From: Escherichia coli
GTDB lineage: Bacteria; Pseudomonadota; Gammaproteobacteria; Enterobacterales; Enterobacteriaceae
Direction: 5' to 3' (one strand)
Length of the DNA: 64,000 bases
Assembly (NCBI RefSeq): GCF_044324875.1
Contig: NZ_CP172185.1
In this document: positions 1 to 19,254 of the stretch, piece after piece
Layout of the letters: every line of letters starts with the position of its first letter
How positions within the stretch are numbered: position 1 is the stretch's first letter
Made by a program: the position numbers and the translations under genes
Notes under the pieces: model-generated
What the model was told of the DNA's origin: nothing
Seen by the model: the letters and a program-made list of their open reading frames with translations, nothing else
Databases searched by the model: none

Positions 1-984
<984 letters not shown>

Positions 985-985
985 A

Positions 986-1720
986 TCAGTCGCGCACTTT
1001 GTCCGCTTTCTCCCGGGCTTCCCGCTCGAGAGAGAAAATAATCCGCTGTAATTGCCGCTCCACCGTCGGGCTGACGTTAAGAAAACGGAAGCTCAGACGG
1101 GGAGTGGTGATGGTTTCATTCTTGCCATCAATCACTTTGCGCTCGCTGATTGAGATTAACTGGGCGTCAAAGTGAAAAACACCCCATTGCCCCATGTTGA
1201 CTTCAATCTGAGCGAAGCGCATGCCTTCGTGCAATCCGGCAGGCTTTGCTGTTTCCAGTAATGCGCCCATGCCGCCTAACGACAAATCATACAGGCGGAA
1301 ACGTAACGTACTGTTATCCGCCAGTTTGGTCTGGCAAAAATAAGGCGGATGGAGTGGGGCGGAGATGCGGAAATATCGGCGTCGTTGTACAAACCACAAG
1401 GTGGGAGGCGGTACGGTAATAAATGCCGGAAGCTGCAAGTATTCACTCTGCTGTAGTTGTTCAACAGTAAATTCGACTTTCGCGCCCTGGGTTTCGGCGG
1501 TAATGGTAATGTGCTGCGCCTTTAACACAGCGTTGTTATCTTCGGCTTGACTGCCGAAATCCAGCACCAGTTTATCCGGGGTTATTGCCAGTATTTTGCT
1601 GATCAGCTGCCCGCCATTCCAACTGATACGCAAAGGAATTGCGGCTTTGTGCAAATCGCGTAACACGCCCAGGACGGCTAACGGATTTTGTTTCAGGAAC
1701 TGCTCATGGTAATGACTCAC
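986..1720 (-). CDS. ycgR: Flagellar brake protein YcgR (c-di-GMP binding, PilZ domain)
   Basis: 244-aa ORF recognised as YcgR (MSHYHEQFLKQNPLAVLGVLRDL...); convergent with emtA with a 1-bp gap. Confidence 0.92.
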   Translation of the reverse strand: MSHYHEQFLKQNPLAVLGVLRDLHKAAIPLRISWNGGQLISKILAITPDKLVLDFGSQAEDNNAVLKAQHITITAETQGAKVEFTVEQLQQSEYLQLPAFITVPPPTLWFVQRRRYFRISAPLHPPYFCQTKLADNSTLRFRLYDLSLGGMGALLETAKPAGLHEGMRFAQIEVNMGQWGVFHFDAQLISISERKVIDGKNETITTPRLSFRFLNVSPTVERQLQRIIFSLEREAREKADKVRD

Positions 1721-1755
1721 GCGGAAAAACTCCTGACTGACAAACTGTCTTTGGT

Positions 1756-1781
1756 TTATCGGTCACAGTTAACAAAACTTA
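1756..1781 (-). promoter_or_regulatory. Sigma-28 (FliA) type promoter upstream of ycgR
   Basis: Reverse complement reads TAAGTTTT-(11 nt)-CCGATAA, close to the FliA consensus TAAAGTTT-N11-GCCGATAA, about 35-60 nt upstream of the ycgR start; fits ycgR being a late flagellar gene. Confidence 0.7.
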
Positions 1782-1920
1782 ATACAAATGCGTGAATATT
1801 TTTTACATGTTGTTCTTAAATCAGCCGACATACGCCCAGCATCGATTCCGCCCTTGCCTATACTTAGAGCGTTGACGTAAGCATTTCTTGCGTCCGATTC
1901 ATCGAAACGAGGGCCTGAAC

Positions 1921-2175
1921 ATGGGAATTATTGCCTGGATTATTTTTGGCCTGATAGCCGGCATTATCGCCAAGCTAATCATGCCGGGGCGTGATGGTGG
2001 TGGATTTTTCCTGACCTGTATTCTCGGGATAGTCGGTGCGGTGGTCGGCGGCTGGCTGGCGACCATGTTTGGCATTGGCGGCTCCATCAGCGGTTTTAAT
2101 TTGCACAGCTTCCTGGTGGCGGTAGTGGGCGCTATTCTGGTGCTGGGCGTATTCCGCCTCCTGCGAAGAGAATAA
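1921..2175 (+). CDS. ymgE: Small inner-membrane protein, transglycosylase-associated (GlsB/YeaQ/YmgE) family
   Basis: ORF 1888..2175; the ATG at 1921 is preceded by GAGGG and gives an 84-aa glycine-rich two-helix membrane protein (MGIIAWIIFGLIAGIIAKLIMPG...). Confidence 0.85.
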   Translation: MGIIAWIIFGLIAGIIAKLIMPGRDGGGFFLTCILGIVGAVVGGWLATMFGIGGSISGFNLHSFLVAVVGAILVLGVFRLLRRE

Positions 2176-2187
2176 GATTTTCATAAG

Positions 2188-2220
2188 GCGGATAGCGATA
2201 CAGATGCCGCTATCCGCTTT
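2188..2220. terminator. Hairpin between convergent ymgE and the TonB-receptor gene (possible bidirectional terminator)
   Basis: GCGGATAGC (2188-2196) pairs with GCTATCCGC (2209-2217), followed by TTT; A/T-rich on the opposite strand. Confidence 0.55.
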
Positions 2221-2224
2221 CACA

Positions 2225-4195
2225 TCAGAACGTATACTCGATACCTGCCCAGAAATTGCGACCTTCTTCAATAAACCCTTCACTGTAGGCATATTTGGTA
2301 TCAAACAGGTTATTGACCGACGCATTGACGCTGAAGCCATGACCTAAGGTGTAATCGGCTCGAATGTGGGTCACCGCAAAACCGGCGGCTTTTTGTGAAC
2401 CGTCACTGTTGCTGTAGCTGGAGGAACGCGCCTCTTCCGACAGCGTTACGCTTAACGGCTCCCACGGTTTGAGAGTCATCCATGCGGTCATTGTCTGCGT
2501 TGGCAGATCGGTTATCTTGCCGATGTCTTTGCGTTTGGCGTCAGCGTGGATCAGGGCGTAGCTCAATCCTACATCCAGTATATTGCTGATTTTCCCCTTA
2601 ATACCGGCATCCAGACCGCTGTAATCCACCGTGCCGCTGTTCTGATTTTGAATGGTATCGGCATCGATATTGTGCGAGAGGATGGCATCACTCACCCGGT
2701 TATAGTAAACGCTGACCTCAAACCCCCAGTCGTGCGTGAAGGCACCATTCCAGGTTAAATCCACCCCGCGCGCGCGTTCCGGTTTGAGCTGCGGGTTAAC
2801 AATCGCTATCTGGTTATACGCAGGTTTGGACGTGGTATAGCGTTCTTTCAGCGTCGGAAAGCGTGTGCGGTCATAGTACGAAAGCGCCAGCGTGTCTTCA
2901 TTGGCAAAGTGGTATTTCCCCATCACCTGCCAGTTAAAAGCTGACTGATTGTTGTCGTCATAATGGGTGATGCTTCCATCTTTCTCATGTTTTTTCGCTT
3001 CTACGCTATCGCGCCAGTCATAGCTGATTCCAGCCACGACATCGACATTATCGGCAGCAGCCCATTGATATTCACTGGCGAGCGACCAGGTACGATCTTC
3101 ATAGCGATCGTAAGCGGCGTGCGGCGCACCTTTTTCCCGGTGTACGTCATCTTTCCAGTTAACGGCAAACGACAACAGATCGTTTTCACGCACATCGGCT
3201 GCCAGTTGTAACCCGGCACCGTCGCTGTAATCGGAATAATGGCTGTAGCTGCCTTTTTTATTTTTCAAATCAGCCAGCGAGTTGTACATCATTAGCGTAT
3301 TTTCAAAGGTGTCGCGATACAGCCGACTTTTCAGGGTAAAACGATCGTTTAGTTGGGTCGTTCCCTGATAATAAAAACTTTCTTTGTCATACTCTGGCCA
3401 CTGCCAGTAGCGTGATTTCTGACCACTATTTCCACTGTATGGCGGGTTATCTTTTTCACCATCCTGCTTAATGTAAGTCAATGTGTATTCATCGTTTTCG
3501 CGTGGTGTAAAACCGAGCTTCACAATGCCGCGTTTATCATCAGCCGATGAATTAATCATCTTGCCGTGTTTGCCTGCAATATCATTATTTACACCATGCG
3601 GCAGGCCGAGAAAATCCTGCTTTAGCTGGCTACCGCTGACTTGCAAATACCCCAGATCGCTGCTGGCGGCAAATGAAGCATGCATATCGTAGGCATTGTC
3701 CTGGCTACGGCTCCATCCCTGGCGATATCCCAGATTTGCTTCCAGAGGTTTTGTTGGCTTCTGGGTGGTGATATTAATGGCTCCGCCCATCTGATTAGGC
3801 CCCTGAAGCAGCGACGAATACCCTTTGGAAACTTCAACTGCCCCCAAATTGTTGGTCAGAATCCGCGCCAGATCGAGGTTGCCGTCATAGGGAACATAAA
3901 TGGGCACACCGTCGAAATAGACCGGCACCTGACGACTATCAAAGCCACGAACTTTGACCTGTTCTTCGTTGCGGCTACCTGACTTTTGCAGCACCACGCC
4001 GGGGACGACACTTAATGCCTGAGCGACATTCTGTTTATCCAGGGCCTTCATGGTGGGTTGATCGAGAACGGTGGTCGTCGTCGATGATACCGGACTGGAC
4101 CATACGGTCAGCGTGTCACTCTCCTGAGCCGCTACGGCCTGCTGGGTAAAGGCAAGTGATAATGCTGTGCAGAGATAACGTTTTTTGAGTCTCAT
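2225..4195 (-). CDS. TonB-dependent outer-membrane receptor (substrate unknown)
   Basis: ORF 2225..4216; the likely start is the ATG at 4195 (the 4216 start is TTG). It has a signal peptide (MRLKKRYLCTALSLAFTQQAVAAQ), a TonB-box-like DTLTVW, a plug and long beta-barrel, and a C-terminal aromatic residue (…AGIEYTF). No counterpart at this position in K-12 as I remember it. Confidence 0.85.
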   Translation of the reverse strand: MRLKKRYLCTALSLAFTQQAVAAQESDTLTVWSSPVSSTTTTVLDQPTMKALDKQNVAQALSVVPGVVLQKSGSRNEEQVKVRGFDSRQVPVYFDGVPIYVPYDGNLDLARILTNNLGAVEVSKGYSSLLQGPNQMGGAINITTQKPTKPLEANLGYRQGWSRSQDNAYDMHASFAASSDLGYLQVSGSQLKQDFLGLPHGVNNDIAGKHGKMINSSADDKRGIVKLGFTPRENDEYTLTYIKQDGEKDNPPYSGNSGQKSRYWQWPEYDKESFYYQGTTQLNDRFTLKSRLYRDTFENTLMMYNSLADLKNKKGSYSHYSDYSDGAGLQLAADVRENDLLSFAVNWKDDVHREKGAPHAAYDRYEDRTWSLASEYQWAAADNVDVVAGISYDWRDSVEAKKHEKDGSITHYDDNNQSAFNWQVMGKYHFANEDTLALSYYDRTRFPTLKERYTTSKPAYNQIAIVNPQLKPERARGVDLTWNGAFTHDWGFEVSVYYNRVSDAILSHNIDADTIQNQNSGTVDYSGLDAGIKGKISNILDVGLSYALIHADAKRKDIGKITDLPTQTMTAWMTLKPWEPLSVTLSEEARSSSYSNSDGSQKAAGFAVTHIRADYTLGHGFSVNASVNNLFDTKYAYSEGFIEEGRNFWAGIEYTF

Positions 4196-4220
4196 AGAAT
4201 AAATTCCGTTTAACAAAGAA

Positions 4221-5075
4221 TTAAATAGAGGCTGCGGGTTGCAGACTGACTTTAATGTCAGCTGGTGTCGCGTAATAAGGCGCGGAGGTAATAAAAAGGC
4301 GAATGCCGCAGTCGAGGTAATTTTTGAGTGTTGTCAGATTAATTCCACCGGTCAGAGCCAGCGTGCAGTGAGGAGCCAGCGACGGTGCTATTTGCGCAAT
4401 TTCAGTTGCCTGTTGCGGACTAAATTTGTCGAGCTGAAGTACGTCTGGTTGCGCGCGTAACGCGGCGATTGCCTCTTTCGGCGTGTCGGCTTCAACAACT
4501 ATTTTCTTCTCGGGTGCGTGGCGACGTAACTGATTGATTGCGCCTGACCAGTCCTGATTGTCATGAAGAAAATGACGGTGGTTGGCAAACAATAATATGG
4601 TTTCCGCACATCCGGCACGATGAATCAGTCCTCCGGCAGCCAGAATTGCCTGCGAGGCCAGTAAGCGGGTGCCCGGAATCGCTTTTCGGGTGCAGGCGAT
4701 ATTGCCATCAGGGTAACGTTCACGAAGTAACGCCAGCATTTGAGCGAGATAATCAGAAACACCGCAACTCCACTCCAGCACATTCTGGACTGCCTTCCAT
4801 CCCTGATGAAGTGCTGCGGCATTACCCTGCGCACGGATTAGCCGCTGACGCGCGTTCGCTTGTGAACCGTCGCTGACCGCGTCATCAATAGTTAATCCCA
4901 GCGTAGTTAACATCTTACACGCGACAGAAATTCCGCTGACGCAGCCGCCCTGACGGTGAAAAAACTCTATATAGCCATGCTGGTGTCCAATATTTAATGC
5001 TCGCGTGGTCAGGTCACCGCCCTGGATATCTTCCAGAAGTAACGCATCGATTTGTGCCTGAGAAAGGAAAATCAT
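4221..5075 (-). CDS. ModD-like protein (NadC / quinolinate phosphoribosyltransferase fold family)
   Basis: 284-aa ORF with blocks alignable by eye to NadC (…TRKAIPGTRLLASQAILAAGG…, …VVEADTPKEAIAALRAQPDVLQLDKF…). Family assignment is from motif recognition only, with no profile search. Confidence 0.6.
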   Translation of the reverse strand: MIFLSQAQIDALLLEDIQGGDLTTRALNIGHQHGYIEFFHRQGGCVSGISVACKMLTTLGLTIDDAVSDGSQANARQRLIRAQGNAAALHQGWKAVQNVLEWSCGVSDYLAQMLALLRERYPDGNIACTRKAIPGTRLLASQAILAAGGLIHRAGCAETILLFANHRHFLHDNQDWSGAINQLRRHAPEKKIVVEADTPKEAIAALRAQPDVLQLDKFSPQQATEIAQIAPSLAPHCTLALTGGINLTTLKNYLDCGIRLFITSAPYYATPADIKVSLQPAASI

Positions 5076-5884
5076 CGCAGTGCCTCTTGCGGTACGCTAT
5101 CCCACCAGATGAGCGCCCAGTCGCGGCTGGCAGGGGCGAGGGCACGAGCATCTTGTTGTTGATACCAGCGATATAACCGCTCACGCTCATCGTCGTTAAG
5201 TGCGCCCAGACTCCAGCTGACGTTCTGCTCAAAACGTTCCCAGGTGCTGTTATCCTGTTGGCAATTTTGTCCACGGATAAAATCAACGTGAGCATAAATT
5301 CCCATCTGATACAGGACGTTGAGCGCAAAGATATAGTTGGGTAATTCGATCACTTCCCGACCAGCCGCCCGCTGAATGGCTGGAGAGACGAACGAGGTGC
5401 TGACCAGATGAGTCGTATAGACGCGAAGCCGTGCCTGATTATTCAGTTTGCTCATTGCCTGGCGCATATCAGCCACCAGAGTGGAGCGGGAAGCCACGGC
5501 AATATCGCAGCGTGGCAGGTCACTCCAGTCCTCTTCCCAGGCGCGCTGGATCCAGTGGACATTGTCTGCCTTTAGCGCGGCGGCGCGACGGGCGGCAACC
5601 TTCAGCATCCCCTGACTGTAATCAACGCCATAAATCGTCGTGAGTTTGTCAGCCAGCGCCAGCGATACGGTACCCGGTCCGCAGCCCATATCGAATAAGG
5701 TCTGCGCGCCTTGCAGATCAATTTTAGCGGTCAGTTGTTGCAGGTAGCTGTCCGTAGGCGAGGCGCAATTTTCCGCCATTTTTTCCGCCCGTTGATCCCA
5801 GTGATCCGGCGTTTTTTCTGTGCGGTGGGCCAGTTTGAGTTGCTGCAGGTAAAGGTCCGCAAAATCAATATCATCAATGAGCAT
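5072..5884 (-). CDS. Class I SAM-dependent methyltransferase
   Basis: 270-aa ORF with the Rossmann motif I LFDMGCGPG and acidic motif II (IYGVDYS); start overlaps the ModD-like stop by 4 bp (ATGA), indicating translational coupling. Confidence 0.7.
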   Translation of the reverse strand: MLIDDIDFADLYLQQLKLAHRTEKTPDHWDQRAEKMAENCASPTDSYLQQLTAKIDLQGAQTLFDMGCGPGTVSLALADKLTTIYGVDYSQGMLKVAARRAAALKADNVHWIQRAWEEDWSDLPRCDIAVASRSTLVADMRQAMSKLNNQARLRVYTTHLVSTSFVSPAIQRAAGREVIELPNYIFALNVLYQMGIYAHVDFIRGQNCQQDNSTWERFEQNVSWSLGALNDDERERLYRWYQQQDARALAPASRDWALIWWDSVPQEALR

Positions 5885-5893
5885 GATTGTTCC

Positions 5894-6652
5894 TTAGTGG
5901 CTAATTGCAGAGAGGTGATGATGAATCTGGTCGGCAGAAACCCGATACAGGGCAGCCAGTTTGTTCGTTGTTAACTGTTCGGTCGGTAAGCCTTGTGTTA
6001 CTCGTCCATCTGGCTCTACCTGGATAATGCTGTCGGCAATGGCGTTGGCATGGAGCGGATGATGAGTCGACATTAGCATTGTCATGCCGTTATTTTTGAG
6101 CTGCGCCAGCGTGTCCAGTAGTTGGATCTGATGACCGAAATCGAGGCTGGAGGCAGGCTCATCCAGTAATAACAAGCGCGGTTGCTGGACGAGTGCACGG
6201 GCGATTAAAGCCAGCTGACGTTCACCGCCGCTAAGCGTATTCCAGCGTCGTGTCGCCAGATGCAAAATGCCCAGCTTTTCCAGTTGCTCCGTTGCTTTCA
6301 GGCGTTCTTGCTTACCGGGAACGGAAAAAGCGCCTATGGTGGGGGCCAGGCCCATCAACACCATATCCAGCACACTAAAAGCAAAAACGCCGTCGTGCGC
6401 CTGCGGCACCCAGGCAATAGCCTGCGCGCGTTGGCGATGGCTGAGTGTCTGCACAGGGAGGCTATCCAGTAAGATCTCGCCTTTTCATAACGGTATAACG
6501 CCAAGAATGGAGCGCATGAGTGTGGTTTTGCCGCAACCATTGGCTCCTAACAGACAACAAATTGTTCCTTGCGACAGGGTGAAGGACACGTCGCGTAGCA
6601 CCGGATGGCGGGAGTAACCCAGAGACGCATGACGGACGGCAAGCAAAGTCAC
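5894..6652 (-). pseudogene. ABC transporter ATP-binding protein (FecE/BtuD-like) interrupted by an in-frame TGA
   Basis: Track ORFs 6485..6790 (Walker A GANGCGKTTLMRSILGVIPL) and 5894..6454 (LSGGERQ signature, Walker B LLLLDEP) are in the same frame, separated only by TGA at 6485-6487 (complement). Read through, the sequence is contiguous (…ILGVIPL*KGEILLDSLPVQTLSHRQRAQAIAWVPQ…). The proposed GTG start at 6652 overlaps the permease stop (GTGA). Confidence 0.8.
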
Positions 6653-7629
6653 TGGCGACCTCCGCGTAACAACAAAAACAGGAAAAACGGTGCACCAACA
6701 AAAGCGGTCAGAATGCCAAGTGGGATTTCTGTTGTTCCAATGCTGCGTGCCAGCGTATCGGTAAGCAGGAGCAGAATCGCGCCAGTACACATTGCCATGG
6801 GCAACAGCTGCTGATGGTTATGACCGGTCAACAAGCGAGCAATGTGCGGAACGACCAGGCCGACCCAACCAATTATGCCCGCTATTGCTACCGTGCTGGC
6901 GGTGATTAGTGTGGCGCAGACAATTAATCCAAAGCGCAGACGTGTCACGTTCAGTCCCAGCGAACGGGCTTCGTCGTCGGAAAGCGTGAGTAAATTCATG
7001 CGCCAGCGGAGAAAAAACAGGGGCAAGGAGCCTATGAGAATGATCGGTGCAGCATAGCAGAGATCGCGTAAGGTCACGGTGGACAGCCCCCCCAGCAACC
7101 AGAAGGTAATTGACGGTAACTGGGTGTAAGGATCGGCCAGCGTTTTTATTAGCGATATCCCCGCTCCGCACAACGTTCCTAACGCAATGCCTACCAGCAC
7201 CAGGGTTAAGATCGGATCGTGGCGGGTCACCCGACGCGTAATCAACCAGACGCCCGCGACCACCATCAGCCCGCCGCAAAATGCGTACAGCTGGATGTAA
7301 ACAATGGATAATCCCCACAGGATTGCCGCGCAGGCACCAAGTCCGGCACCGGCGGAGACGCCTAAAATATCCGGTGACACTAAGGGATTACGGAACATTC
7401 CCTGATAGGTGGTTCCGGCCCCTGCCAGCGCCGCGCCCAGAAACAGCGCAGCAAGAATACGCGGCACGCGGATTTGCCAGAAGACAATTTGTTCCTGCAC
7501 AGGAACATTTTCTTGACGAAGAATGAGCGCCAGCAGTTGCTGTATATCGAGATGATAAGCCCCACTTACGGCGGCAAAAGTGATACTGATAGCTGCCAGC
7601 AGCAAAATACATCCGTTTACGGTTCTCAT
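6649..7629 (-). CDS. ABC transporter permease, FecCD/BtuC family
   Basis: 326-aa multi-helix membrane ORF typical of iron-siderophore/cobalamin-type permeases; start overlaps the binding-protein stop (ATGA). Confidence 0.85.
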   Translation of the reverse strand: MRTVNGCILLLAAISITFAAVSGAYHLDIQQLLALILRQENVPVQEQIVFWQIRVPRILAALFLGAALAGAGTTYQGMFRNPLVSPDILGVSAGAGLGACAAILWGLSIVYIQLYAFCGGLMVVAGVWLITRRVTRHDPILTLVLVGIALGTLCGAGISLIKTLADPYTQLPSITFWLLGGLSTVTLRDLCYAAPIILIGSLPLFFLRWRMNLLTLSDDEARSLGLNVTRLRFGLIVCATLITASTVAIAGIIGWVGLVVPHIARLLTGHNHQQLLPMAMCTGAILLLLTDTLARSIGTTEIPLGILTAFVGAPFFLFLLLRGGRQ

Positions 7630-8651
7630 TAGCTCGTCACCAATTTTTGATAGTCGGCGTCACTTAATGGGCAATGCCAGAACAGTTGGGCGTAATGCTG
7701 CATGTCACTTTTAAACTGGCGATTGATGGCGGGATCCAGCCAGGCGTGAAGTCTGCGTAATCCCAGAAGACGGTTGATTCCCGGCGGGGCATCCAGCCAG
7801 CCAAAGGGCAGGCCACTTAAAAATAAGATGCGTTGTTCCGCAACCGCTTTCACGCCCTGCCAGAGAGGATCACGACGAATAAAATCTGCAGTAACGGCCT
7901 CCTGAACCAGAATAATATCCGGCTGCCAGCGCAGGAGATTTTCCATGGAAACCTGTGTCAGACCGTGGCGATCGGCTATTTGCGCGACGTTATGCAAACC
8001 TAATAATTCCGCCGCCTCGGTATGCAACGAACCCTGTAAGCCCGTTTCCAGCCCTCGAGGACCGCGCGCAGCATAAAAGCTGAGGTTAGCGGCGGGTGAG
8101 GTGGCGAATGCCTGAGCTTCACCAACGAAGCGGCTGGCGAGATTGGCTTGTTCTGCGGCGCGGTGCTCTTCGCCTAACGTTTTGCCAAGCGTTGTTAACT
8201 GTTCTGCTGATTGTTCCAGTTTCCCGTTAAGCAATAACCAGGGTATTTGTGTCTGTTCGCTAACCTGCCGTGCCTGGGAGATCCAGGTTTCATCCGTATT
8301 GCCGCAATCAACGACCAAATCGGGATGTAACGCCATAAGCCCTTCCAGCGAGAGTGTGCTGGCGCGCCCGGCGAGTCGTCCCAGCCTGGGTAACTGGCGA
8401 ATGTGCTCTGGCAATGGAATTAATGCCTGACGGGCAAAATCAAAAGAGGAAAAACCGACCATTTTTTCTGGCGCGACAGCCAGCAATAGCAAATCGGCGG
8501 GCGCACCTGCGCTGACGATGCGTGTAATGTTTTGGGCTTCGGGAAGCGTCAGTGAGGCCCAGAATTTGACTGATTGTGCAAAAGAAGGCAGATGATGCAG
8601 GAACAACGTCGACGCAAGAATCTGTGTAAACCTCCGTCTGGTTAGTGACAT
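7629..8651 (-). CDS. Periplasmic substrate-binding protein of the ABC importer, with a twin-arginine-like signal
   Basis: 340-aa ORF; N-terminus MSLTRRRFTQILASTLFLHHLPSFAQS has T-R-R-x-F, a hydrophobic core and an AxA-like site; first gene of a six-gene minus-strand operon. Confidence 0.75.
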   Translation of the reverse strand: MSLTRRRFTQILASTLFLHHLPSFAQSVKFWASLTLPEAQNITRIVSAGAPADLLLLAVAPEKMVGFSSFDFARQALIPLPEHIRQLPRLGRLAGRASTLSLEGLMALHPDLVVDCGNTDETWISQARQVSEQTQIPWLLLNGKLEQSAEQLTTLGKTLGEEHRAAEQANLASRFVGEAQAFATSPAANLSFYAARGPRGLETGLQGSLHTEAAELLGLHNVAQIADRHGLTQVSMENLLRWQPDIILVQEAVTADFIRRDPLWQGVKAVAEQRILFLSGLPFGWLDAPPGINRLLGLRRLHAWLDPAINRQFKSDMQHYAQLFWHCPLSDADYQKLVTS

Positions 8652-8920
8652 AAGTTATATCCTGATAATTAAAACCGCTATATATTTACATATATATCGA
8701 AAAAAATCATGTTTGATGTCAAAATTTGTCTAAAGAGACAGAATGATTTGCTTGTTGCTTAAATAACACTTTGTTCCACAAGAAAATTGTCAGGGAGAAT
8801 GGCGGAGTGGCAAAAAATATAAATAGAGGTGTAATGATTAACAAATTGATAAAATAAAATTAAAATCTTCTCTGATAAAAGAAAATAAAGGCATAGACCG
8901 TAGAATGGGGGGCATTTCGT

Positions 8921-8967
8921 GGCGAAAAAAGAGCAATGCCAATTTTATGCACATAATGGCATTGCTC
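8921..8967 (-). terminator. Candidate intrinsic terminator downstream of treA
   Basis: Perfect 11-bp inverted repeat GAGCAATGCCA (8931-8941) / TGGCATTGCTC (8957-8967) with a 15-nt loop, followed on the minus strand by a T-tract (complement of GGCGAAAAAAGA). Confidence 0.6.
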
Positions 8968-8981
8968 GATATACAGCAAAG

Positions 8982-10679
8982 TTAAGGCGTAGGTTCCGCC
9001 TCTTTTTGTTTTACCGGCTGTGTTGTTGATTCACTGAGTGGACGCGTCGCCGGAACATTGTCACACGGTTGCTCTTTCGGGCAGAGCAAATCCAGCATTT
9101 TCAGCGTCACGCCATTGGTCCAGCCAAAGCCATCCTGTAATGGATATTCGCCACCGCCGCCCCCTGTTCCGGTGGTGCTGACATCATATTTCTCGACCAG
9201 CTTCTTCTCCCGGTCATAAGTGTGCTGAACATTGGTCAGGAAGTGCCAGCTAATGTCCATCGCCACCTCGTTCTGCCCGTAGTTTTGCAACCCTTCTGTC
9301 GCCACCCATTGCAGGGGAGCCCAGCCATTTGGCGCATCCCATTGCTGTCCACTTTTCACCGACGTGGTGTTCAGGCCGCCTGGTTGCAGCAGATGTGTTT
9401 TCGTCGCCGTCGCCATTTTGTTGGCGCGATCTTTCGCTGCCGCATTGACGTACAGCGGGAACAGGGCGGCAGCGGTTAACTGATTGCGCACTTTATGACT
9501 TTTCAGGTCGTAATCGGCATACCAGCCTTGTTGATCGTTCCACAGGTATTTTTCGATCCCTTTTTGACGGGCATTCGCCAGCGTTTCGTACTGGTTTGCC
9601 ATCGCGTTATCTCCGGAAGCTTTGCTGGCGCGGGCGAGGATTTTTTCCATTTTAAACATCAGGCTGTTCAGATCGACCGGTACGATGCTGGTGGTGCGTA
9701 AGGTATTTAACTGCTGCGGATTGTCCATCCAGCGCGAGCTGAAATCCCAGCCAGACGCAGCGGCAGAGCGCAGGTCGCGGTAAATTTCAGTGGCAGGTCG
9801 ATTCGGATTGCTTTTGGCGGTGGCAATATCTTCCACCCATGACTCTGGTCGTGGCGTATCGCGATCGTCCCAGTAGCGGTTGAGAAGGGTACCATCCTGA
9901 AGTTTTACAACGCGTTTTTCCTGTTGTCCGGCTTGCAGGTTTTCAACACCGTCCATCCAGTAAGCATATTCTTTTTGCATTTGCGGCAGGTATTGCTTCA
10001 ACGCGGCATCGCCTTCATGCTGCGCCAGTAACTCTACCATCAGGGCAAAGAAGGGCGGCTGCGAGCGACTTAAATAGTAACTGCGGTTGCCGTTGGGAAT
10101 ATGACCGTAAGTGTCTATTTCATGAGCAAAATTGGCCACCATATCCGCGACTTTATCCCAGTGACCGCTTTCGGCAAGCCCCAGCATGGTGAAGTAACTG
10201 TCCCAGTAATACACTTCGCGAAAACGTCCTCCCGGCACGACATAGGGTTCCGGTAACGGCAACAGAGAATCCCATTTCTCGGTACTTTCGGTAGAACGGG
10301 TTAACACCGGCCAAAGTCCGTCTATATGTTCGCGTAGTGATTGCCCCTCTGGCGGAACATATTTCTCGCCCTCTTTCGGCAGGGTGAAATTGACGTTAAC
10401 GAAATGGCGCAGATCAAATCCGCTCTGGTTTTGCTGCATCCGATAATCAGCAAGGATCATCAGCGGATCGCTGTTCGGCACGGCATCGGCAAAGGTTTTT
10501 TGGTCCGGAAAAAGTTTGGCGTTTTGCACATCATTAAACAGCGGCCCTAATAAAATATCAGGCGGCTGTGGCGTTACCGGTGTTTCTTCTGCCTGCACCG
10601 ATAGCGCAGCGAAACACAAAAAGATGCAGGTTGGAATTAACGCCATTTTTAGCGGGCGAGAAGCTGCGGGGGATTTCAT
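8982..10679 (-). CDS. treA: Periplasmic trehalase
   Basis: ORF 8982..10682; the protein ([32 protein letters not shown]…) is recognised as TreA with signal peptide. The start is placed at the second Met to match the remembered 565-aa protein. Confidence 0.93.
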
Positions 10680-10997
10680 CAATCATTCTCCTTTGGCGAA
10701 ACCGAATAAAACGGTATTCAAGTATCAGAAAACCTTAGTTCAGGATCGCACTAGCTGCATGATCGAAATCTCATTCTGCGAACGGTCAGGCATTTTAGAA
10801 AAGGGAATTAAAGGGATAAATAACGTCGAAATAGAGTGAACAAATAACGTCTGTTTGTTAGCCAGCCAGCGGCGTTGGGTTCGCGATTAGCGAAGAAAAA
10901 TCATCACAAATTGGTGAAAAATATAACAGGTAGTTAAAAACATCCGTGCAGAGTAAATAGCCGGATGACATCAGAACGATGCCATCCTAACTGTGGT

Positions 10998-12416
10998 TTA
11001 ACCCTGACGGCTGAAACGTTGCGTTTTAACGTCCAGCGTTAGCGTTTCTTCTGGTTGTATCGCATACAGTTTCTCACCCTGCTGGCAAATCCAGCCAATC
11101 CCCAGTTCACGGGCGATCAGGGCGCTGTGGGATAGCGGACTTCCGGCGCTAAGGCAGATACCTTTTACAACCGCCGGATCCAGTTGCAGTATTGTGGAGG
11201 GATAGATGTTCTCCGCCAGTAGAATAGTTGGCGAGTTAAACTGCGGGAGTTCTTCTTTCGTTTGGGTCAGGTGGACCAGGGTGCGATGCAGAAGATCGTC
11301 CACATCAATATAGCGAGCCTGTAGATATTCATCATCCAGTTGCTGGTATTGCTGGCTAAGTTCTTTAAGAACTTGCTGCCAGGCATATTCTGCCGTGCAA
11401 TGTTCATGCTGAAGGAGTTCGCTTGCCGCTGCCAGCAGTTCCGGATCATCTAACAGTGTATGGTGACCAGAAAAGATTGCGGCAATATCGTCAAGCCCGC
11501 TGGCTTCTGCTTTCGCTGTTAACGTCATCAGATCTAATAACGTGAAGTCAATGGCCTGGCGTAATCGTTCTTGTTCTTCATCCACGGTCAGGGTTGATTT
11601 TGCCTGTACCGTACATAAAACCGGTTGATAATAAAAGGTTTTACCCGAAACAGGCGGAACGGGACGCAGAATAGGTGGAGCAACTTCCTCCGTTTCACCA
11701 AAGTTATCTTCAGCCAGCTGACGGAAAGCGATCAGTGCCTCTTCAGCTTCTGGCCCTTTCGCAATCAGGCGCAGCGTATCGTTATAGCGAACTTGTAGTA
11801 ACGCAATCTGGTTAATACTCTCCGGTGTGACGCATTTGCCGTTTTTCTCCAGCAACATATCGGCATTAAATGTCGATAAGGTATAAACCAGCCGGGAGGC
11901 CGGACGTACATGCAGGCCGTTACGGTTTTTAATGACCACCGCCAGAGAACGGGCTTCTTCATCGTAGGCAGGACATGACTCAGAGATTTCAGTGTCGGAG
12001 GAGGGTAAACCCAGTTGTTCACGTTTGGCTTCCAGCGCATGCATGGCGTCAAAGATAACTTTGTCGATATCCGCCCCCGAGGCCGCGCTGACCGTTGCTG
12101 CCAGTGTACCTTCGACCAACGGCGCAGCACACAAACGTACTTTTGCGGCGATCTCGGGAGCCAGCAATTCCAGCGCAGTTTCAGCACTCAATAATGCGCT
12201 ACCCATATCCATCATGACCAGCACATGGTCGGCATCGGCAACAGATTCGATGGCCTCCATCACTTTGACGGCATCGGTACCAATGGGATTTTGTGGATCG
12301 TCAATTCCCGCGGCAATGGCGATTTTACAACTATCACTCATTAACATCTGACGGGCTAATTCACCGACACCTTCTCCCAGTCGGCTGCTATGTGAAACTA
12401 TGACCAGGTTTACCAT
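10998..12416 (-). CDS. dhaM: Dihydroxyacetone kinase phosphotransferase subunit DhaM (PTS EIIA-HPr-EI fusion)
   Basis: ORF 10998..12422; the sequence from MVNLVIVSHSSRLGEGVGELARQ… is recognised as DhaM. Confidence 0.92.
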   Translation of the reverse strand: MVNLVIVSHSSRLGEGVGELARQMLMSDSCKIAIAAGIDDPQNPIGTDAVKVMEAIESVADADHVLVMMDMGSALLSAETALELLAPEIAAKVRLCAAPLVEGTLAATVSAASGADIDKVIFDAMHALEAKREQLGLPSSDTEISESCPAYDEEARSLAVVIKNRNGLHVRPASRLVYTLSTFNADMLLEKNGKCVTPESINQIALLQVRYNDTLRLIAKGPEAEEALIAFRQLAEDNFGETEEVAPPILRPVPPVSGKTFYYQPVLCTVQAKSTLTVDEEQERLRQAIDFTLLDLMTLTAKAEASGLDDIAAIFSGHHTLLDDPELLAAASELLQHEHCTAEYAWQQVLKELSQQYQQLDDEYLQARYIDVDDLLHRTLVHLTQTKEELPQFNSPTILLAENIYPSTILQLDPAVVKGICLSAGSPLSHSALIARELGIGWICQQGEKLYAIQPEETLTLDVKTQRFSRQG

Positions 12417-12426
12417 CACCAATTCC

Positions 12427-13059
12427 TTACTCTTTTGCGGCTAACGCCAACATTTGCATCATAAACATCACCGAGGTCGCACCGGGGTCCTGGTGACCAA
12501 TACTGCGTTCACCGAGATAACTGGCGCGGCCTTTGCGGGCTTGCATCGTAATCGTACTTTGTGCAGCGGATTCGGCGATGCTACTGGCAGCTTCGAGCGC
12601 CGCCGGAACAGAGAGATTTTGCTCGCTGGACTGACGTAACGATTCCACCACCGGCACCCACACATCACACATGGTTTTATCGCCAGGTTCGGCTTTACCG
12701 CGACTGATTACGCCGTCCGCGCCATCGCGGAACATCTGATAAAGCTCTTCCAGCGTCAGGCTTTGCCGTGCCTGGGTCGCCTGTGCGGCGCGGATAAAGA
12801 AGGTACCGAAAAGCGGACCACTGGCACCACCGACGCTGGAAAGTAGCGTCATACCGGTATTCTTGAGAATGAAACCGATATCTTTATCTGCGATAGCAGG
12901 GAGTTTTTCCACCACTTTGCTAAAGCCTCGGTTCATATTTAGCCCGTGGTCAGCGTCGCCAATTTCGCGATCCAGTCCGGTAAGATACTCGCTCTCGGTG
13001 TTGAAAATATCGCCACAACGAGTGAGCCAGTTAACAATTTGAGTTCTGCTCAGTGACAT
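12427..13059 (-). CDS. dhaL: Dihydroxyacetone kinase ADP-binding subunit DhaL
   Basis: ORF 12427..13137; the internal Met start MSLSRTQIVNWLTRCGDIFN… gives a 210-aa DhaL. Confidence 0.92.
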   Translation of the reverse strand: MSLSRTQIVNWLTRCGDIFNTESEYLTGLDREIGDADHGLNMNRGFSKVVEKLPAIADKDIGFILKNTGMTLLSSVGGASGPLFGTFFIRAAQATQARQSLTLEELYQMFRDGADGVISRGKAEPGDKTMCDVWVPVVESLRQSSEQNLSVPAALEAASSIAESAAQSTITMQARKGRASYLGERSIGHQDPGATSVMFMMQMLALAAKE

Positions 13060-13069
13060 TGCTTTCTCC

Positions 13070-14140
13070 TTATTTACCCCAGTTAAGGGCCGGGGTGTGG
13101 ACCGGGGCGTCCCAGAGTGCCAGCGTTTCGTCATCAACTTTCAGTAAGGTGATTGAGAAACCGGTCATATCCAGTGAGGTGCAGTACGCGCCAATTAAAT
13201 TACGTTCGATAGTCAATCCTGCTTGCTGGCAACGTGTGGTCAGGCGGTTATAGACGCCGTATAGCTCAGAAAGCGGAGTTGCGCCAAGATTGTTAACCAG
13301 CGCAATCACCCGATCGCCAGACTGGAGCGGTTGCTTAGTTTGTGGTTCTTCCTGCCAGCTGCCTTGTTGATAATCCCAGAAACGCAAAGTGCGATGGTAT
13401 GAGCCATTTTCCAGCAGGGTGTCGAACATTTCATCGACGGTTTGATCAAGGGAAGAGAAGGGACGGCGGTCAATACCTGGCTCACCATGAATGCCGACGC
13501 CAAACTCCATCTCATTGTCCGCCAGGGTAAAAGAAGGTTTGCCCGCGGCAGGAACGGTACAGGCACCGAGAGCAATACCTATTGAGTGGCCTTGATTATT
13601 CAACTTACGCCCCAGTTCCGCACAGGCGTCCAGTGAGTCGCCACGCTCCGCCGCTGCGCCTACGAGTTTTTCAATTAATACGGTGTTGGCAACGCCGCGC
13701 CGCCCGGCGGTATAAAGACTGTCTTTTACTGCAACGTCGTCATCAATGACCACAGTGGTCACTTTTACGCCGCTATCGTGCAGTAACTCGGTTGCTGTTT
13801 CGAAGTTAAGAATATCGCCGGTGTAATTTTTGATAATCAACAGTACACCTTCGCCGCCATCAATTTGCATGGCGCATTCAAAGATTTTATCGGGCGTCGG
13901 TGAGGTGAAAATTTCGCCCGGACAGGCCCCCGAAAGCATCCCCTGACCGATATAACCACAATGCATCGGCTCGTGTCCGCTACCGCCACCCGACAGCAGG
14001 GCGACTTTTCCTGCAACGGGGGCATCAGCTCGGGTGACATACACCGGATCCTGGTGCAGTATCAGCGATGGATGCGCTTTCGCCAGTCCTGCCAGTTGTT
14101 CGTCCAGTACGTCTTGCACATCATTGATCAATTTTTTCAT
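13070..14140 (-). CDS. dhaK: Dihydroxyacetone kinase dihydroxyacetone-binding subunit DhaK
   Basis: ORF 13070..14170; the start at MKKLINDVQDVLDEQLAGL… gives a 356-aa DhaK. Confidence 0.92.
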   Translation of the reverse strand: MKKLINDVQDVLDEQLAGLAKAHPSLILHQDPVYVTRADAPVAGKVALLSGGGSGHEPMHCGYIGQGMLSGACPGEIFTSPTPDKIFECAMQIDGGEGVLLIIKNYTGDILNFETATELLHDSGVKVTTVVIDDDVAVKDSLYTAGRRGVANTVLIEKLVGAAAERGDSLDACAELGRKLNNQGHSIGIALGACTVPAAGKPSFTLADNEMEFGVGIHGEPGIDRRPFSSLDQTVDEMFDTLLENGSYHRTLRFWDYQQGSWQEEPQTKQPLQSGDRVIALVNNLGATPLSELYGVYNRLTTRCQQAGLTIERNLIGAYCTSLDMTGFSITLLKVDDETLALWDAPVHTPALNWGK

Positions 14141-14367
14141 TATTTTGCTCCAGCAATTACGGTAGGGCATGGATGATGTTCAACGACACGGCGACCACTG
14201 ACTGCCGATGAATCCATTGTGCATCAGGCAAGGGAAAAGAAAATTAGCCCAAATTATGTTTCATAGTGAAACATATTCTTTAATGAATGTTCCATATTGA
14301 AACTTTTACGTGTATTAATACTTAAAATTGCGAGCCGGAACACCTTTTGTCATAAGGGATGCGGGAT

Positions 14368-16287
14368 ATGAGTAGCGCTTTTAACAACGATGGTCGGGAC
14401 ATATCTCCCTTAATTGCAACCTCCTGGGAGCGATGCATTAAGCTGATGAAACGGGAGACATGGAACGTACCACACCAGGCCCAGGGCGTGACATTTGCGT
14501 CTATTTATCGGCGTAAGAAAGCGATGCTGACGCTCGGGCAGGCTGCGCTGGAAGATGCCTGGGAATATATGGCACCGCGAGAGTGTGCGCTGTTTATCCT
14601 CGATGAAACCGCCTGCATTCTCAGCCGTAATGGCGATCCGCAAACCTTGCAGCAGCTAAGTGCACTGGGATTCAATGACGGCACGTATTGCGCCGAGGGA
14701 ATTATTGGTACTTGTGCGCTATCGTTAGCGGCTATCTCTGGTCAGGCCGTGAAAACGATGGCCGATCAACATTTCAAACAGGCACTCTGGAACTGGGCCT
14801 TTTGTGCAACGCCGTTGTTTGACAGCAAGGGCCGATTGACGGGAACAATAGCGCTGGCGTGTCCGGTTGAGCAAACTACCGCAGCTGATTTGCCGTTGAC
14901 GTTGGCAATCGCCCGAGAGGTCGGTAATTTACTGCTGACGGACAGTTTGCTCGCTGAAACTAACCGTCATTTAAATCAACTTAATGCCCTGTTAGAAAGT
15001 ATGGATGATGGCGTGATTAGCTGGGACGAGCAGGGTAATTTGCAATTTATCAACGCCCAGGCGGCGCGGGTCTTGCGCCTTGACGCGACGGCAAGTCAGG
15101 GAAGGGCAATCACTGAACTCTTAACGTTACCCGCCGTATTGCAACAAGCAATAAAACAGGCACATCCGCTCAAACACGTAGAAGCAACCTTTGAAAGTCA
15201 GCACCAGTTTATTGATGCGGTGATAACCCTTAAACCGATAATAGAAACGCAGGGAACCAGCTTTATTTTGTTGCTCCATCCTGTGGAACAGATGCGGCAG
15301 TTAATGACCAGTCAATTAGGAAAAGTCAGCCATACTTTCGCTCATATGCCACAAGAGGATCCGCAAACCCGCCGCTTGATTCATTTTGGTCGCCAGGCGG
15401 CGCGCAGTAGCTTTCCTGTCCTGCTTTGTGGAGAGGAGGGCGTGGGCAAGGCACTGCTAAGTCAGGCAATTCATAATGAAAGCGAGCGTGCAGCGGGGCC
15501 TTATATTGCCGTCAATTGTGAGTTATATGGTGATGCGGCGCTGGCGGAAGAATTTATTGGTGGCGATCGCACGGATAATGAAAATGGCCGTCTGAGTCGG
15601 CTGGAACTGGCGCACGGCGGCACGCTGTTTCTTGAAAAGATTGAATATCTGGCGGTGGAGTTACAGTCTGCTTTGCTTCAGGTTATCAAGCAGGGTGTTA
15701 TCACGCGACTGGATGCGCGGCGATTAATACCCATTGATGTCAAAGTGATTGCCACAACGACCGCGGACCTCGCAATGCTGGTGGAACAAAATCGCTTTAG
15801 TCGCCAGCTGTATTACGCGCTGCATGCATTTGAAATTACCATCCCGCCTCTGCGTATGCGGCGTGGCAGCATTCCGGCGCTGGTGAATAACAAATTACAC
15901 AGTCTTGAAAAACGCTTCTCTACGCGGCTGAAAATTGATGACGATGCCCTCGCTCGCCTGGTTTCCTGTGCATGGCCTGGCAACGATTTTGAACTTTACA
16001 GCGTCATCGAGAATCTTGCTCTGAGTAGTGATAACGGGCGCATTCGCGTCAGTGATTTACCTGAACATCTGTTTACCGAGCAGGCGACAGATGATGTCAG
16101 CGCCACCCGCCTTTCCACCAGTCTGTCATTTGCGGAAGTTGAAAAAGAGGCAATTATTAACGCAGCCCAGGTCACAGGCGGTCGCATTCAGGAAATGTCG
16201 GCTTTACTTGGAATCGGCCGCACTACGCTGTGGCGGAAAATGAAGCAACATGGCATTGATGCAGGGCAGTTTAAGCGCCGGGTATGA
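14368..16287 (+). CDS. dhaR: Sigma-54-type transcriptional activator of the dha operon (GAF-PAS-AAA+-HTH)
   Basis: ORF 14359..16287; the ATG at 14368 has the better-spaced RBS; AAA+ motifs (GEEGVGKALLSQAIH, GAFTGA-like region) and a C-terminal HTH; divergent from dhaK. Confidence 0.92.
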   Translation: MSSAFNNDGRDISPLIATSWERCIKLMKRETWNVPHQAQGVTFASIYRRKKAMLTLGQAALEDAWEYMAPRECALFILDETACILSRNGDPQTLQQLSALGFNDGTYCAEGIIGTCALSLAAISGQAVKTMADQHFKQALWNWAFCATPLFDSKGRLTGTIALACPVEQTTAADLPLTLAIAREVGNLLLTDSLLAETNRHLNQLNALLESMDDGVISWDEQGNLQFINAQAARVLRLDATASQGRAITELLTLPAVLQQAIKQAHPLKHVEATFESQHQFIDAVITLKPIIETQGTSFILLLHPVEQMRQLMTSQLGKVSHTFAHMPQEDPQTRRLIHFGRQAARSSFPVLLCGEEGVGKALLSQAIHNESERAAGPYIAVNCELYGDAALAEEFIGGDRTDNENGRLSRLELAHGGTLFLEKIEYLAVELQSALLQVIKQGVITRLDARRLIPIDVKVIATTTADLAMLVEQNRFSRQLYYALHAFEITIPPLRMRRGSIPALVNNKLHSLEKRFSTRLKIDDDALARLVSCAWPGNDFELYSVIENLALSSDNGRIRVSDLPEHLFTEQATDDVSATRLSTSLSFAEVEKEAIINAAQVTGGRIQEMSALLGIGRTTLWRKMKQHGIDAGQFKRRV

Positions 16288-16386
16288 AAGACAGAAACGA
16301 TTTCTGATACATCAGAGTGATCTGTATTTCATTCCGGCGCACGCTAACAATTTTCAGCATCGTTTAAGGGCTTGTCTATCCCGCAC

Positions 16387-19254
16387 TTAAAAGCTGAATC
16401 GATATCCTCCGTTGACTTGCTTCTGATCAAAGAGGTTACCCTGCGTGTAATCCGCTTCGAGATAGAATGTGTGCTGTTTGTTATACTGTGCACTGACTCC
16501 CACGCCGTTATTCCAGCCATTACCTTTGAAACTGTACTTCTCCCGGGAGTTGTTCAACAGATATTCGGTATCCCCTGAAAACTCGCGGATAGCGCCAGTC
16601 TTCACATAGACATTCAGCTGGCTGTTGCCTGCGGTGATGTCATATCCCAGTATCATGCTGGCACGCCCCAGCAGCGATTCGTAGTGATTCAGATGTATAT
16701 TGAGGCCATTACTCGCCTTCATAGCCATCTCATTCTGGTGGCTGTATGTGAGCTGGGTTTGCGGCTCTATATAGAACCCATAACCAGTAGGGGTCAGGTT
16801 GAACCTCTGCCCGGCTTCCAGGGCGATACTCATTCCATTCGCAGTGCCGTTGGCATTAACGCCGTTGTTCTGACTGTCCAGTACGTGGAAACTATTTTTC
16901 TGGCGTGATGCTTTTACAACGAGATCGCTGTAAAAACCGCTGTGTGCCATGTAACTGGCGTACATTCCCATGTAGTCTGAACGTGCGGTACCGTCGCCTC
17001 CGCTATAGTCCGGCGATGCATGTGTTGAGCCAATATACAGACCGACATACAACGGCATTTCATCAGAGAGACGTTTATCCCCACCAAACTGGATACCGCT
17101 GTAACCCATGTCAAAGCCGCTCAGTTTGCCACTGGCAAAGGAGTCCAGGCTTCCCCCATAACTGCGCAACCAGATATTACCGTCTTTACTCTGATTTCGC
17201 AGGTCACCCATCCGTTGCATCAGCGTACGGTTTTCAACATAGTTCAATAAGTAACCGACATTGAGATAATTGCCGCCAGCATCTGCAGTCGTGGTGGGTT
17301 TAGGCGTGGGAGCGGGGGCAGGCGTAGGATCGGGGTTGACTATGGGAGGCTGAGCGGGAGCTGGTGTGGGTTCAGGATTAGGAGTCGGTTCCGGAACTGT
17401 CCCGGAAGCGTAAAGCTCCCAGTTAGTGCCATTTTTACGCACATCGTACAGATATCCCCCCAACTCAACCTGAGAAGACGCGCTGAACGAGGCCGCACCG
17501 TCAGTGGTTTTTACCACTGTCAGAACTTCATTTCCCGTTGTGGCCTCGCTGCCCTGGTTGCGGATAGCCAATACGTGATTACCAGCACTACTCCCGCTGA
17601 TATTCAATAAATCCCCTTTATTATTAACGCCATTACCCTCGCCAACAACATCAGCACGCATAATAAAGGTACTGTTACCGCTCAGGTTCTCTACGTTTAA
17701 TGTGGTAAATGTGCCGGCAGTTGACCCGTGGCTGGCAAAATCGACAGTTGAATGGCTCAGCGCCAGCGTGTCGAGATTAGAATTACTTGTTACGTTCCAG
17801 ACGCTGTTATTCATTGCAACGTCCAGTTTCCCGCCATTGACATTATCGCTGAGGGAAGAACCTGTCCAAACCGACCCAGGGTGCATATCCAGATTGATTA
17901 GCCCACCTTTGGAAAGAACGCTACCGTTGATAAGCATACGACCCGAGGCGTTGATGCGGCTGGCGGCATAACCATCGTCATGTTGCGTTGCGATGGCCAT
18001 CTGGTCGGGTGTACTCATATCAATGACCAGATCGCTCGTGAGGTCGATCTGGCTGTTGGTCATGGCATAAATTCCCCTGGCTCCTGCCGCGCCGGTGATA
18101 GCCAAACTGTCTCCGGTTATTCTACCGCCGCTGAGCGCCCACAAACCCAGCGCCAGACTGCCATTACGATCAACCGTAATATCGGTATTTTGCATGTTGA
18201 CAACAGCCGTTGCCGTCTGGGCTGAGGCACCATAAGAACCGCTGGAAAAGATGCTGTTTCGTTGCGCTGCCGTGCCAGAAAAATTGATTGTCGCGTCTGA
18301 ACCACTGGTTACGAGGCCACCGCCCTGCGCGGAAGAAATATGGCTATCAGCACCGATAGTGGTTGTACCACCACGAACTTCGACGCCATTTGCCGCGGCT
18401 CCAGTTACATCAACAGTGAGTGCATTCGCGCTCACCTGGCCAAAGCTCCAGAGGCCGTGTGCATTATCGCCATTGGTTTTAATGGTACTGTTTGTTCCGA
18501 GATCGACAACAGAGTTTTTCTGTACGTTTATCCCCATGGCGCTGTAGCCCTGAACATCGATTGTCAGGTCTGTCGCCGTAAAACGCGCAGCACCATTGGC
18601 GTTATTGCCGTTGAGACCACCGATATAAACACCTGTACTTCCATCGGTCTTGATTTTACTTCCGCTTCCAAGATCGACACTGGTGCCATAGTCATTGATT
18701 GTTAGGCCTATACCGTTCGAGTTTTCAATGGTGAATTGAGTGGCTGTTAGTGTTGAGCTATGTCTAATAATGATGCCGTCATCGTTACTCTTAATGGTGC
18801 TGCCTGTGCCTAAGTCAGCATGGGTATAGTCACCAATTAAATTAATGCCGATGGCAGAGGTTTGACCAACAACATCTACTGTAAGTCGGTTAGCTGTCAG
18901 GGAGCTGTTCTTGCCCTGAATAATGATTCCCTTTGCATATCCAGAGGCGTCGTTGACATTGACGGTGACATCATTACCCAGGTTGATATTGCCAGGCGTG
19001 TTTCCTGCTGGGGTCATTACACCATAGAGGTTTCCTGATGGATCGGCGGTATCTCCTGTAATTCTGTCACCATCATTAATAGTAATATTGGTGCCATTTT
19101 GACTTCCTAAATCAGCAGCTATCAGCAGGGGGGAAAAGATAATTGCATTCAAACCAATAGCGCCATATTTTATCAGTTGAATGGAGGGCGAACGGATTTT
19201 TAATTCAGCGAGACGATCGGCTTTGGTATTCCCATTGTGTTGTTTGATGCCCAT
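16387..19254 (-). CDS. ycgV: Autotransporter (type Va) adhesin-like protein
   Basis: 955-aa ORF with a signal region, a long Gly/Thr/Asn-rich beta-helical passenger, a Pro/Thr-rich linker (PEPTPNPEPTPAPAQPPIVNPDPTPAPAPTPKPTTT) and a C-terminal beta-barrel ending …GGYRFSF. Confidence 0.88.
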   Translation of the reverse strand: MGIKQHNGNTKADRLAELKIRSPSIQLIKYGAIGLNAIIFSPLLIAADLGSQNGTNITINDGDRITGDTADPSGNLYGVMTPAGNTPGNINLGNDVTVNVNDASGYAKGIIIQGKNSSLTANRLTVDVVGQTSAIGINLIGDYTHADLGTGSTIKSNDDGIIIRHSSTLTATQFTIENSNGIGLTINDYGTSVDLGSGSKIKTDGSTGVYIGGLNGNNANGAARFTATDLTIDVQGYSAMGINVQKNSVVDLGTNSTIKTNGDNAHGLWSFGQVSANALTVDVTGAAANGVEVRGGTTTIGADSHISSAQGGGLVTSGSDATINFSGTAAQRNSIFSSGSYGASAQTATAVVNMQNTDITVDRNGSLALGLWALSGGRITGDSLAITGAAGARGIYAMTNSQIDLTSDLVIDMSTPDQMAIATQHDDGYAASRINASGRMLINGSVLSKGGLINLDMHPGSVWTGSSLSDNVNGGKLDVAMNNSVWNVTSNSNLDTLALSHSTVDFASHGSTAGTFTTLNVENLSGNSTFIMRADVVGEGNGVNNKGDLLNISGSSAGNHVLAIRNQGSEATTGNEVLTVVKTTDGAASFSASSQVELGGYLYDVRKNGTNWELYASGTVPEPTPNPEPTPAPAQPPIVNPDPTPAPAPTPKPTTTADAGGNYLNVGYLLNYVENRTLMQRMGDLRNQSKDGNIWLRSYGGSLDSFASGKLSGFDMGYSGIQFGGDKRLSDEMPLYVGLYIGSTHASPDYSGGDGTARSDYMGMYASYMAHSGFYSDLVVKASRQKNSFHVLDSQNNGVNANGTANGMSIALEAGQRFNLTPTGYGFYIEPQTQLTYSHQNEMAMKASNGLNIHLNHYESLLGRASMILGYDITAGNSQLNVYVKTGAIREFSGDTEYLLNNSREKYSFKGNGWNNGVGVSAQYNKQHTFYLEADYTQGNLFDQKQVNGGYRFSF

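Follow-up and report, generated by a model that had tools for sequence, protein, structure and literature searches.

MolBC-A of Haemophilus influenzae (HI1470/HI1471/HI1472; PDB 2nq2) is a described importer of the class in which a FecCD-type permease is combined with a Peripla_BP_2 binding protein. BtuCD-F, FhuBC-D, HmuUV and FecCDE, which are associated with B12, siderophores and haem, have the same architecture as the Escherichia coli locus analyzed here and significant similarity to it. A precedent of another kind is provided by strain-specific nonsense pseudogenes in accessory E. coli loci, in which a single-base nonsense change is found together with intact relatives and undamaged neighbours. 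We analyzed a stretch of 64,000 nucleotides from an E. coli chromosome (assembly GCF_044324875.1, contig NZ_CP172185.1), hereafter the window, which contains a locus of the first kind with a lesion of the second. Compared with MolBC-A, the E. coli locus additionally contains genes for a TonB-dependent receptor and a SAM methyltransferase, its binding protein is only weakly similar to HI_1472, and in the window its ATPase gene is cut by a stop codon. Very probably, a recent T>G change at window position 6486 turned Leu56 of the ATPase of this accessory, MolBC-like type II importer into an opal stop.

The window is collinear with the chromosome of E. coli GMF054 at 98.6–99.5% identity, with the gene order ldcA-emtA-ycgR-ymgE, treA, dhaMLK, nar, adhE and oppA. 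Two stretches were more diverged from GMF054: treA (8982–10679) was only 97.1% identical, with 49 mismatches and with neighbours at 99–100%, and narG (42588–46331), narJ and narI were about 97.5–98% identical. Both stretches look like recombination patches. In addition, a copy of IS1 is located at 56793–57561 between adhE and tdk; it is 99.6% identical to the IS1A of strain GN25 and is flanked by a 9-bp direct repeat, GGCAAATGC. The same adhE-tdk intergenic region of GMF054 contains an IS200C transposase gene.

Between ymgE and treA, six closely packed genes are encoded on the minus strand (Table 1). Because the spacings between them are tight (overlaps of 1 and 4 nt, gaps of 9 and 25 nt), we suggest that the six genes form a single operon. 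A scan of the locus for promoters and terminators returned matches at chance level. Precomputed Pfam matches on identical loci identified FecCD (PF01032) for the permease and Peripla_BP_2 (PF01497) for the binding protein, and these two are encoded together with a cognate ATPase, as expected of a type II ABC importer of the BtuCD/MolBC class. When the proteins were compared with solved structures, HI1471 (2nq2_A) was by far the best match of the permease (E = 5.9e-65), and HI1470 was the best importer match of the ATPase with its reading frame restored (E = 8.5e-36, residues 16–238). Other structures matched by the ATPase or the permease included 7lb8, 4g1u and 1l7v. The binding protein matched HI_1472 weakly (E = 1e-7, over the 73 residues 214–286); its better match was the uncharacterised binding protein 4pag.

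Table 1. Coordinates of the six-gene cluster and of the features within its interrupted ATPase gene (window positions)
Feature	Position	Strand	Remarks
Periplasmic substrate-binding protein (Peripla_BP_2, PF01497)	7629..8651	-	Intact; first gene of the putative operon
FecCD-family (PF01032) type II ABC permease	6649..7629	-	Intact; best solved relative HI1471 (MolB)
ABC transporter ATP-binding gene, whole, now a pseudogene	5894..6652	-	252 codons and stop; GTG start at 6652-6650
N-terminal ATPase remnant, 55 codons, still translatable	6488..6652	-	First beta strands, P-loop and the helix after the P-loop
Walker A / P-loop GANGCGKT, residues 36-43	6524..6547	-	5' of the stop
Premature opal stop TGA, codon 56 of the ATPase gene	6485..6487	-	TCA on the plus strand; from sequence and translation
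Downstream ORF in the same frame, GTG start, 186 aa	5894..6454	-	Contains Q-loop, signature, Walker B and H-loop
Q-loop, residues 82-84	6401-6409	-	3' of the stop
Signature LSGGERQ, residues 140-146	6215-6235	-	3' of the stop
Walker B LLLLDEP, residues 160-166	6155-6175	-	3' of the stop
H-loop, residues 195-198	6059-6070	-	3' of the stop
Class I SAM-dependent methyltransferase	5072..5884	-	Intact; 9 nt 3' of the ATPase gene
ModD (nicotinate-nucleotide pyrophosphorylase family)	4221..5075	-	Intact; TIGR01334, 498 bits against a cut-off of 179
TonB-dependent outer-membrane receptor	2225..4195	-	Intact; last gene of the cluster

None of the NCBIfam equivalog cut-offs was reached by the ATPase, the permease, the binding protein or the receptor. 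The highest scores, all below cut-off, were obtained with putative F420-0, haem, corrinoid, FecE and FhuC models; the matches included haem, corrinoid, FecE and FhuC models for ATPases and BtuC, FecC/D and FhuB models for permeases. Because no equivalog cut-off was reached, the locus cannot be assigned to B12, siderophore or haem substrates. The best candidate for a Fur box 5' of the first gene scored 12/19, and this score was reached 107 times in the window, which corresponds to background. Thus, in contrast to what would be expected of a Fur-regulated iron or siderophore operon, and to the BtuCD-F, FhuBC-D, HmuUV and FecCDE systems, the locus has neither a convincing Fur box nor an equivalog assignment. 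The transporter appears closest to the MolBC (HI1470/HI1471) type II importer, and iron uptake should not be assumed. The presence of a ModD gene in the cluster is suggestive of an importer of molybdate or tungstate, and, taken together, the six genes are predicted to encode a TonB-dependent type II ABC uptake pathway. A literature search returned no paper in which the E. coli locus is described.

On the minus strand, positions 5894–6664 were translated as a single frame with one internal stop, reading GANGCGKTTLMRSILGVIPL, the stop and then KGEILLDSLPVQTLSHRQRAQAIAWVPQ; the peptide across the stop of the ATPase gene (6664..5894, minus strand) reads GANGCGKTTLMRSILGVIPL, the stop and then KGEILLDSLPVQ. 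A sequence-only reading of this DNA had placed an in-frame TGA within 6455–6490, splitting an ABC ATPase gene into two fragments that share one frame, with the Walker A motif upstream of the stop and the signature and Walker B motifs downstream. Its coordinates and the peptide that it quoted were accurate: the TGA is codon 56 (6487..6485), the peptide is continuous across it, and the motifs lie on the two sides as described (Table 1). The altered base is window position 6486 (C on the plus strand, G on the coding strand), which is base 167 of the gene, and the GTG start of the gene overlaps the stop codon of the permease gene (GTGA). The Pfam domain ABC_tran (PF00005) spans the stop, covering residues 19–167 of the restored ATPase (E = 1.6e-30). 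Because the TGA parts Walker A from all other motifs, Walker A, Q-loop, signature, Walker B and H-loop do not occur in one polypeptide, as they do in an ABC nucleotide-binding domain. The ATPase sequence is a member of PF00005 by descent, not as an intact protein.

We compared the ATPase gene with its orthologues. Codon 56 was TTA in the DNA alignment of GN25, GN02461, Nissle 1917 and O157:H7 Z1831, and translation of the GMF054 gene gave Leu at this position; in all of these genomes the ATPase is one annotated CDS of 759 nt. The orthologous codon points to one T>G transversion, from TTA (Leu56) to TGA (opal), as the cause of the stop. The gene was 99.5% identical, without gaps, to its GMF054 orthologue, and GN25, the closest genome, differed from the window at 1 base in 851, namely the base that makes the stop. 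Since the orthologues are single 759-nt CDSs and GN25 differs by this one base, the split ATPase is not a chance pair of ORFs. Moreover, the restored 252-aa protein with Leu56 was found verbatim on 276 public contigs. Hence the questions raised by the sequence-only reading, namely which sense codon is ancestral, whether other strains carry an intact gene and whether orthologues also carry two separate ORFs, can be answered: the codon is TTA (Leu), the annotated complete genomes inspected have an intact gene, and the two-ORF arrangement is contradicted by orthologues that are single CDSs.

The same comparison bears on the idea that the TGA is decoded by design, as selenocysteine, by programmed recoding or within an ATPase that is naturally made in two pieces. 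In favour of this idea, the TGA is in frame and both halves keep intact motifs; however, codon 56 is TTA (Leu) in every orthologue examined, the complete genomes inspected have the gene as a single CDS, and the downstream ORF has no Shine-Dalgarno sequence. Neither SECIS nor any other Rfam family was found at 5700–6900, even at E ≤ 1. We accordingly rejected selenocysteine and recoding, given the ancestral TTA and the lack of an Rfam match; the properties expected of a selenoprotein were not found, and we give decoding by design practically no credence.

The 851-bp ATPase region was present in 2,139 of 5,426 complete E. coli genomes (about 39%), and the locus is therefore accessory and dispensable, which bears out the earlier description of the system as accessory. 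A 61-mer centred on the TGA had no exact (100%) match among the 2,138 complete E. coli genomes matched, and a 61-mer with TAA in an O157-like context had none among about 2,130 locus-bearing complete E. coli genomes; these queries covered TGA in the context of the window and TAA in the O157-like context. In metagenome contigs that matched a 27-nt flanking pattern with N at the variable base, the base was T in all cases (51/51).

We then considered whether the G at 6486 is a sequencing or assembly error, in which case the gene of the strain would in reality be intact, with TTA at codon 56. In favour of this view, no error could be smaller than a single-base substitution, the TGA is shared by no complete RefSeq genome, and breaks within a few bases of the site are found in many short-read assemblies, which could hint at a locally difficult sequence. 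However, a Logan contig of ERR14764776 was 100% identical to window positions 3485–9652 (6,168 bp) and one of SRR31073000 was 100% identical to positions 1–16454 (16,454 bp), in both cases with the TGA included. These two runs were submitted to different archives and assembled separately, although, in this comparison of assemblies, one matching run may be the source of the window itself. Both the exact 55-aa product and the exact 186-aa downstream product were called on the Logan contigs of these runs, and a third matching contig with the TGA is on record. A run from a different lineage, SRR3745275, also assembles with the TGA. Furthermore, when 49 CDSs were mapped from GMF054 onto the window, the other 48 were free of stops and full-length, with no frameshift, and none of the 49 was gapped (0/49). 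An assembly of generally low quality was rejected on the basis of these 48 intact CDSs and the absence of gaps. These results argue that the TGA is probably a real mutation and that an assembly error, the alternative offered by the sequence-only reading, is unlikely; indeed, for the G at 6486 in particular, we regard an error as very improbable.

The breaks in short-read assemblies near the stop were characterized separately. Many Logan, ENA and NCBI contigs break at bases 161–167 of the ATPase gene (window positions 6492–6486). Of the 10 places shown for the 55-aa product, 7 were contigs that stop at gene bases 165–167 and not real stop codons, and contig ends at these bases occurred in at least five haplotypes. 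When we looked up prefixes of 49–60 aa, those of 53 aa (contig end at base 161; 114 blocks), 55 aa (49 blocks) and 58 aa (18 contigs) were over-represented, and those of 49–52, 54 and 56 aa were absent from the collection. Contigs of the Nissle-type allele start at bases 164–165. As causes of the breaks, we rejected an 8-bp duplication or deletion between CGTTAT direct repeats, for which neither predicted product is on record, and considered an IS junction unlikely, as the contig tails follow the gene sequence up to their final base. The likeliest explanation would be strain mixtures in metagenomes.

Two further read sets contain a stop at the codon affected in the window. In SRR3745275, TGA is found at the same nucleotide on a different ATPase haplotype, in a sequence 1.1% diverged from the window over 16.4 kb. 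This stop and a polymorphic site 55 bp from it are found in all four combinations of alleles; the four-gamete test thus fails, which indicates either recurrent mutation or a very short recombination tract. In ERR4784044, which is 2% diverged, the same codon is TAA. These observations raise the possibility that window position 6486 is a recurrent nonsense target, through a mutational hot spot or through selection to lose the importer, and that the TGA of the window is one instance of it. The T at this position is adjacent to an A4 run and a CGTTAT direct repeat, which makes the site a candidate local hot spot, and a T>A change beside an A run fits dislocation mutagenesis. The frequent breaks of short-read assemblies within a few bases of base 167 would agree with such a site, as would the adjacent codon 55, which is also TTA and for which no 54-aa product is on record, a weak internal control. 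On the other hand, the stop alleles were found by looking up the exact 55-aa product, a query that can detect truncation only at codon 56, and there are 72 one-step nonsense paths in the gene. The SRR3745275 and ERR4784044 alleles are each singletons in the collection, no such allele was present in the 2,138 complete genomes or the 51 metagenome contigs, a short recombination tract could also explain the shared TGA, and T>G has no obvious templated mechanism here. We therefore regard a recurrent target at this position as improbable, and the same doubt applies to the claim that stops arose independently at base 167 in at least three E. coli lineages (TGA twice and TAA once). Compared with other strain-specific nonsense pseudogenes of E. 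coli, the only oddity of this case is that two other read sets, unrelated to it, have a stop at this nucleotide as well.

Other alleles of the locus were also disrupted. In ERR12830931 and SRR4300075, the ATPase gene has a -1 frameshift (GG to G) 15 nt 5' of the position of the stop, which gives a product ending in SILALYRY; the 1-bp deletion affects gene bases 151–152 (window positions 6502–6501) and occurs in two haplotypes. In O157:H7 Z1831, the ATPase is intact, but the methyltransferase orthologous to 5072–5884 is a RefSeq pseudogene with an internal stop. Because the stop, the frameshift and the methyltransferase alleles occur in different lineages, the operon is one that decays repeatedly, with different genes affected in different lineages. 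The permease gene of SRR4300075 is also split, into ORFs of 184 and 142 aa. Separately, a 153-aa C-terminal ATPase fragment starting at Met100 was called on 55 contigs (E. coli ISC41 and 54 others, including one genome of 5.1 Mb), which suggests another, more widespread allele, disrupted or mis-started, in a Nissle-type lineage.

We next considered the consequence of the Leu56-to-opal change in the window. Translation of the ATPase gene, coupled to that of the permease gene through the GTGA overlap, would end after 55 residues, leaving a fragment with only the first strands, the P-loop and the next helix; about 78% of the nucleotide-binding domain is missing from this remnant. The first in-frame start codon after the stop is the GTG at 6454, whose product has no Walker A, and a Shine-Dalgarno sequence is absent from the 30 nt 5' of it (AAAGGCGAGATCTTACTGGATAGCCTCCCT). 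Consequently, the 186-codon remainder, with all other catalytic motifs, would lack its own ribosome-binding site. As ABC importers work only with two complete nucleotide-binding domains, the inner-membrane step of uptake should be lost in this lineage, or cut to the level that UGA read-through allows; we infer that transport by the importer is lost. The 590 nt left untranslated could have a polar effect on the genes that follow, namely those for the methyltransferase, ModD and the receptor. Within this untranslated stretch, 83 nt 3' of the premature stop, a terminator-like hairpin followed by a T run is located at 6402–6385 on the minus strand. This weak hairpin could add to polarity, with the reservation that such matches occur at chance frequency in the region.

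UGA is the leakiest stop codon in E. coli, where Trp-tRNA(Trp) competes with RF2 for it, and read-through of UGA in a K-12 reporter was about 2% at 37°C and 4% at 25°C (PMC10570021). Read-through by Trp-tRNA(Trp) would here give a full-length L56W ATPase and a partly functional importer, so that the gene would be down-regulated and not dead. In the alignment to HI1470 (PDB 2nq2), residues 55–56 lie in the loop right after the helix that follows the P-loop, and residue 56, which aligns with an Ile of HI1470, is in a variable, non-conserved part of this loop. The context UGAA is relatively leaky, and the stop in the window is followed by A; the remainder of the gene is undamaged. However, a few per cent of an ATPase that is required as a dimer would still be a severe reduction, strains other than K-12 generally have a more efficient RF2, and the untranslated 590 nt may lower mRNA stability in addition to any polarity. 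The absence of further damage is equally expected of a very young pseudogene. We therefore consider a leaky but working gene unlikely. Nevertheless, as a full-length L56W product by read-through is possible, 'inactive' may mean 'strongly reduced'.

The loss of the ATPase by the T>G change would be a recent event. Compared with GN25, the T>G change is the only disabling one in the allele of the window, and none of the five remaining operon genes is damaged, both of which speak for a young event. The features expected of a young pseudogene were all found here: one disabling change, close relatives with an intact allele, a lack of secondary decay and an identical sequence in independent runs. The proposal of the sequence-only reading that an accessory importer was recently pseudogenised is thus supported by the TTA of the orthologues, the intact gene elsewhere, the contigs with the restored allele and the otherwise intact operon. 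Selection would tolerate the loss because the locus is accessory. The case is an ordinary strain- or lineage-specific nonsense pseudogene, a kind of event that is already known.

These results reveal no new mechanism, and their value is mainly practical. In annotation, the ATPase gene is best recorded as a pseudogene (Leu56 to opal) and not as two ABC-related ORFs, and no functional MolBC-like, ModD-associated, TonB-dependent uptake system should be assumed for this lineage. As a lineage marker, the SNP is clean: it is absent from all complete E. coli genomes searched and present in at least three public read sets. If the recurrence at base 167 were true, the decay of this accessory locus would be a minor instance of site-specific homoplasy.
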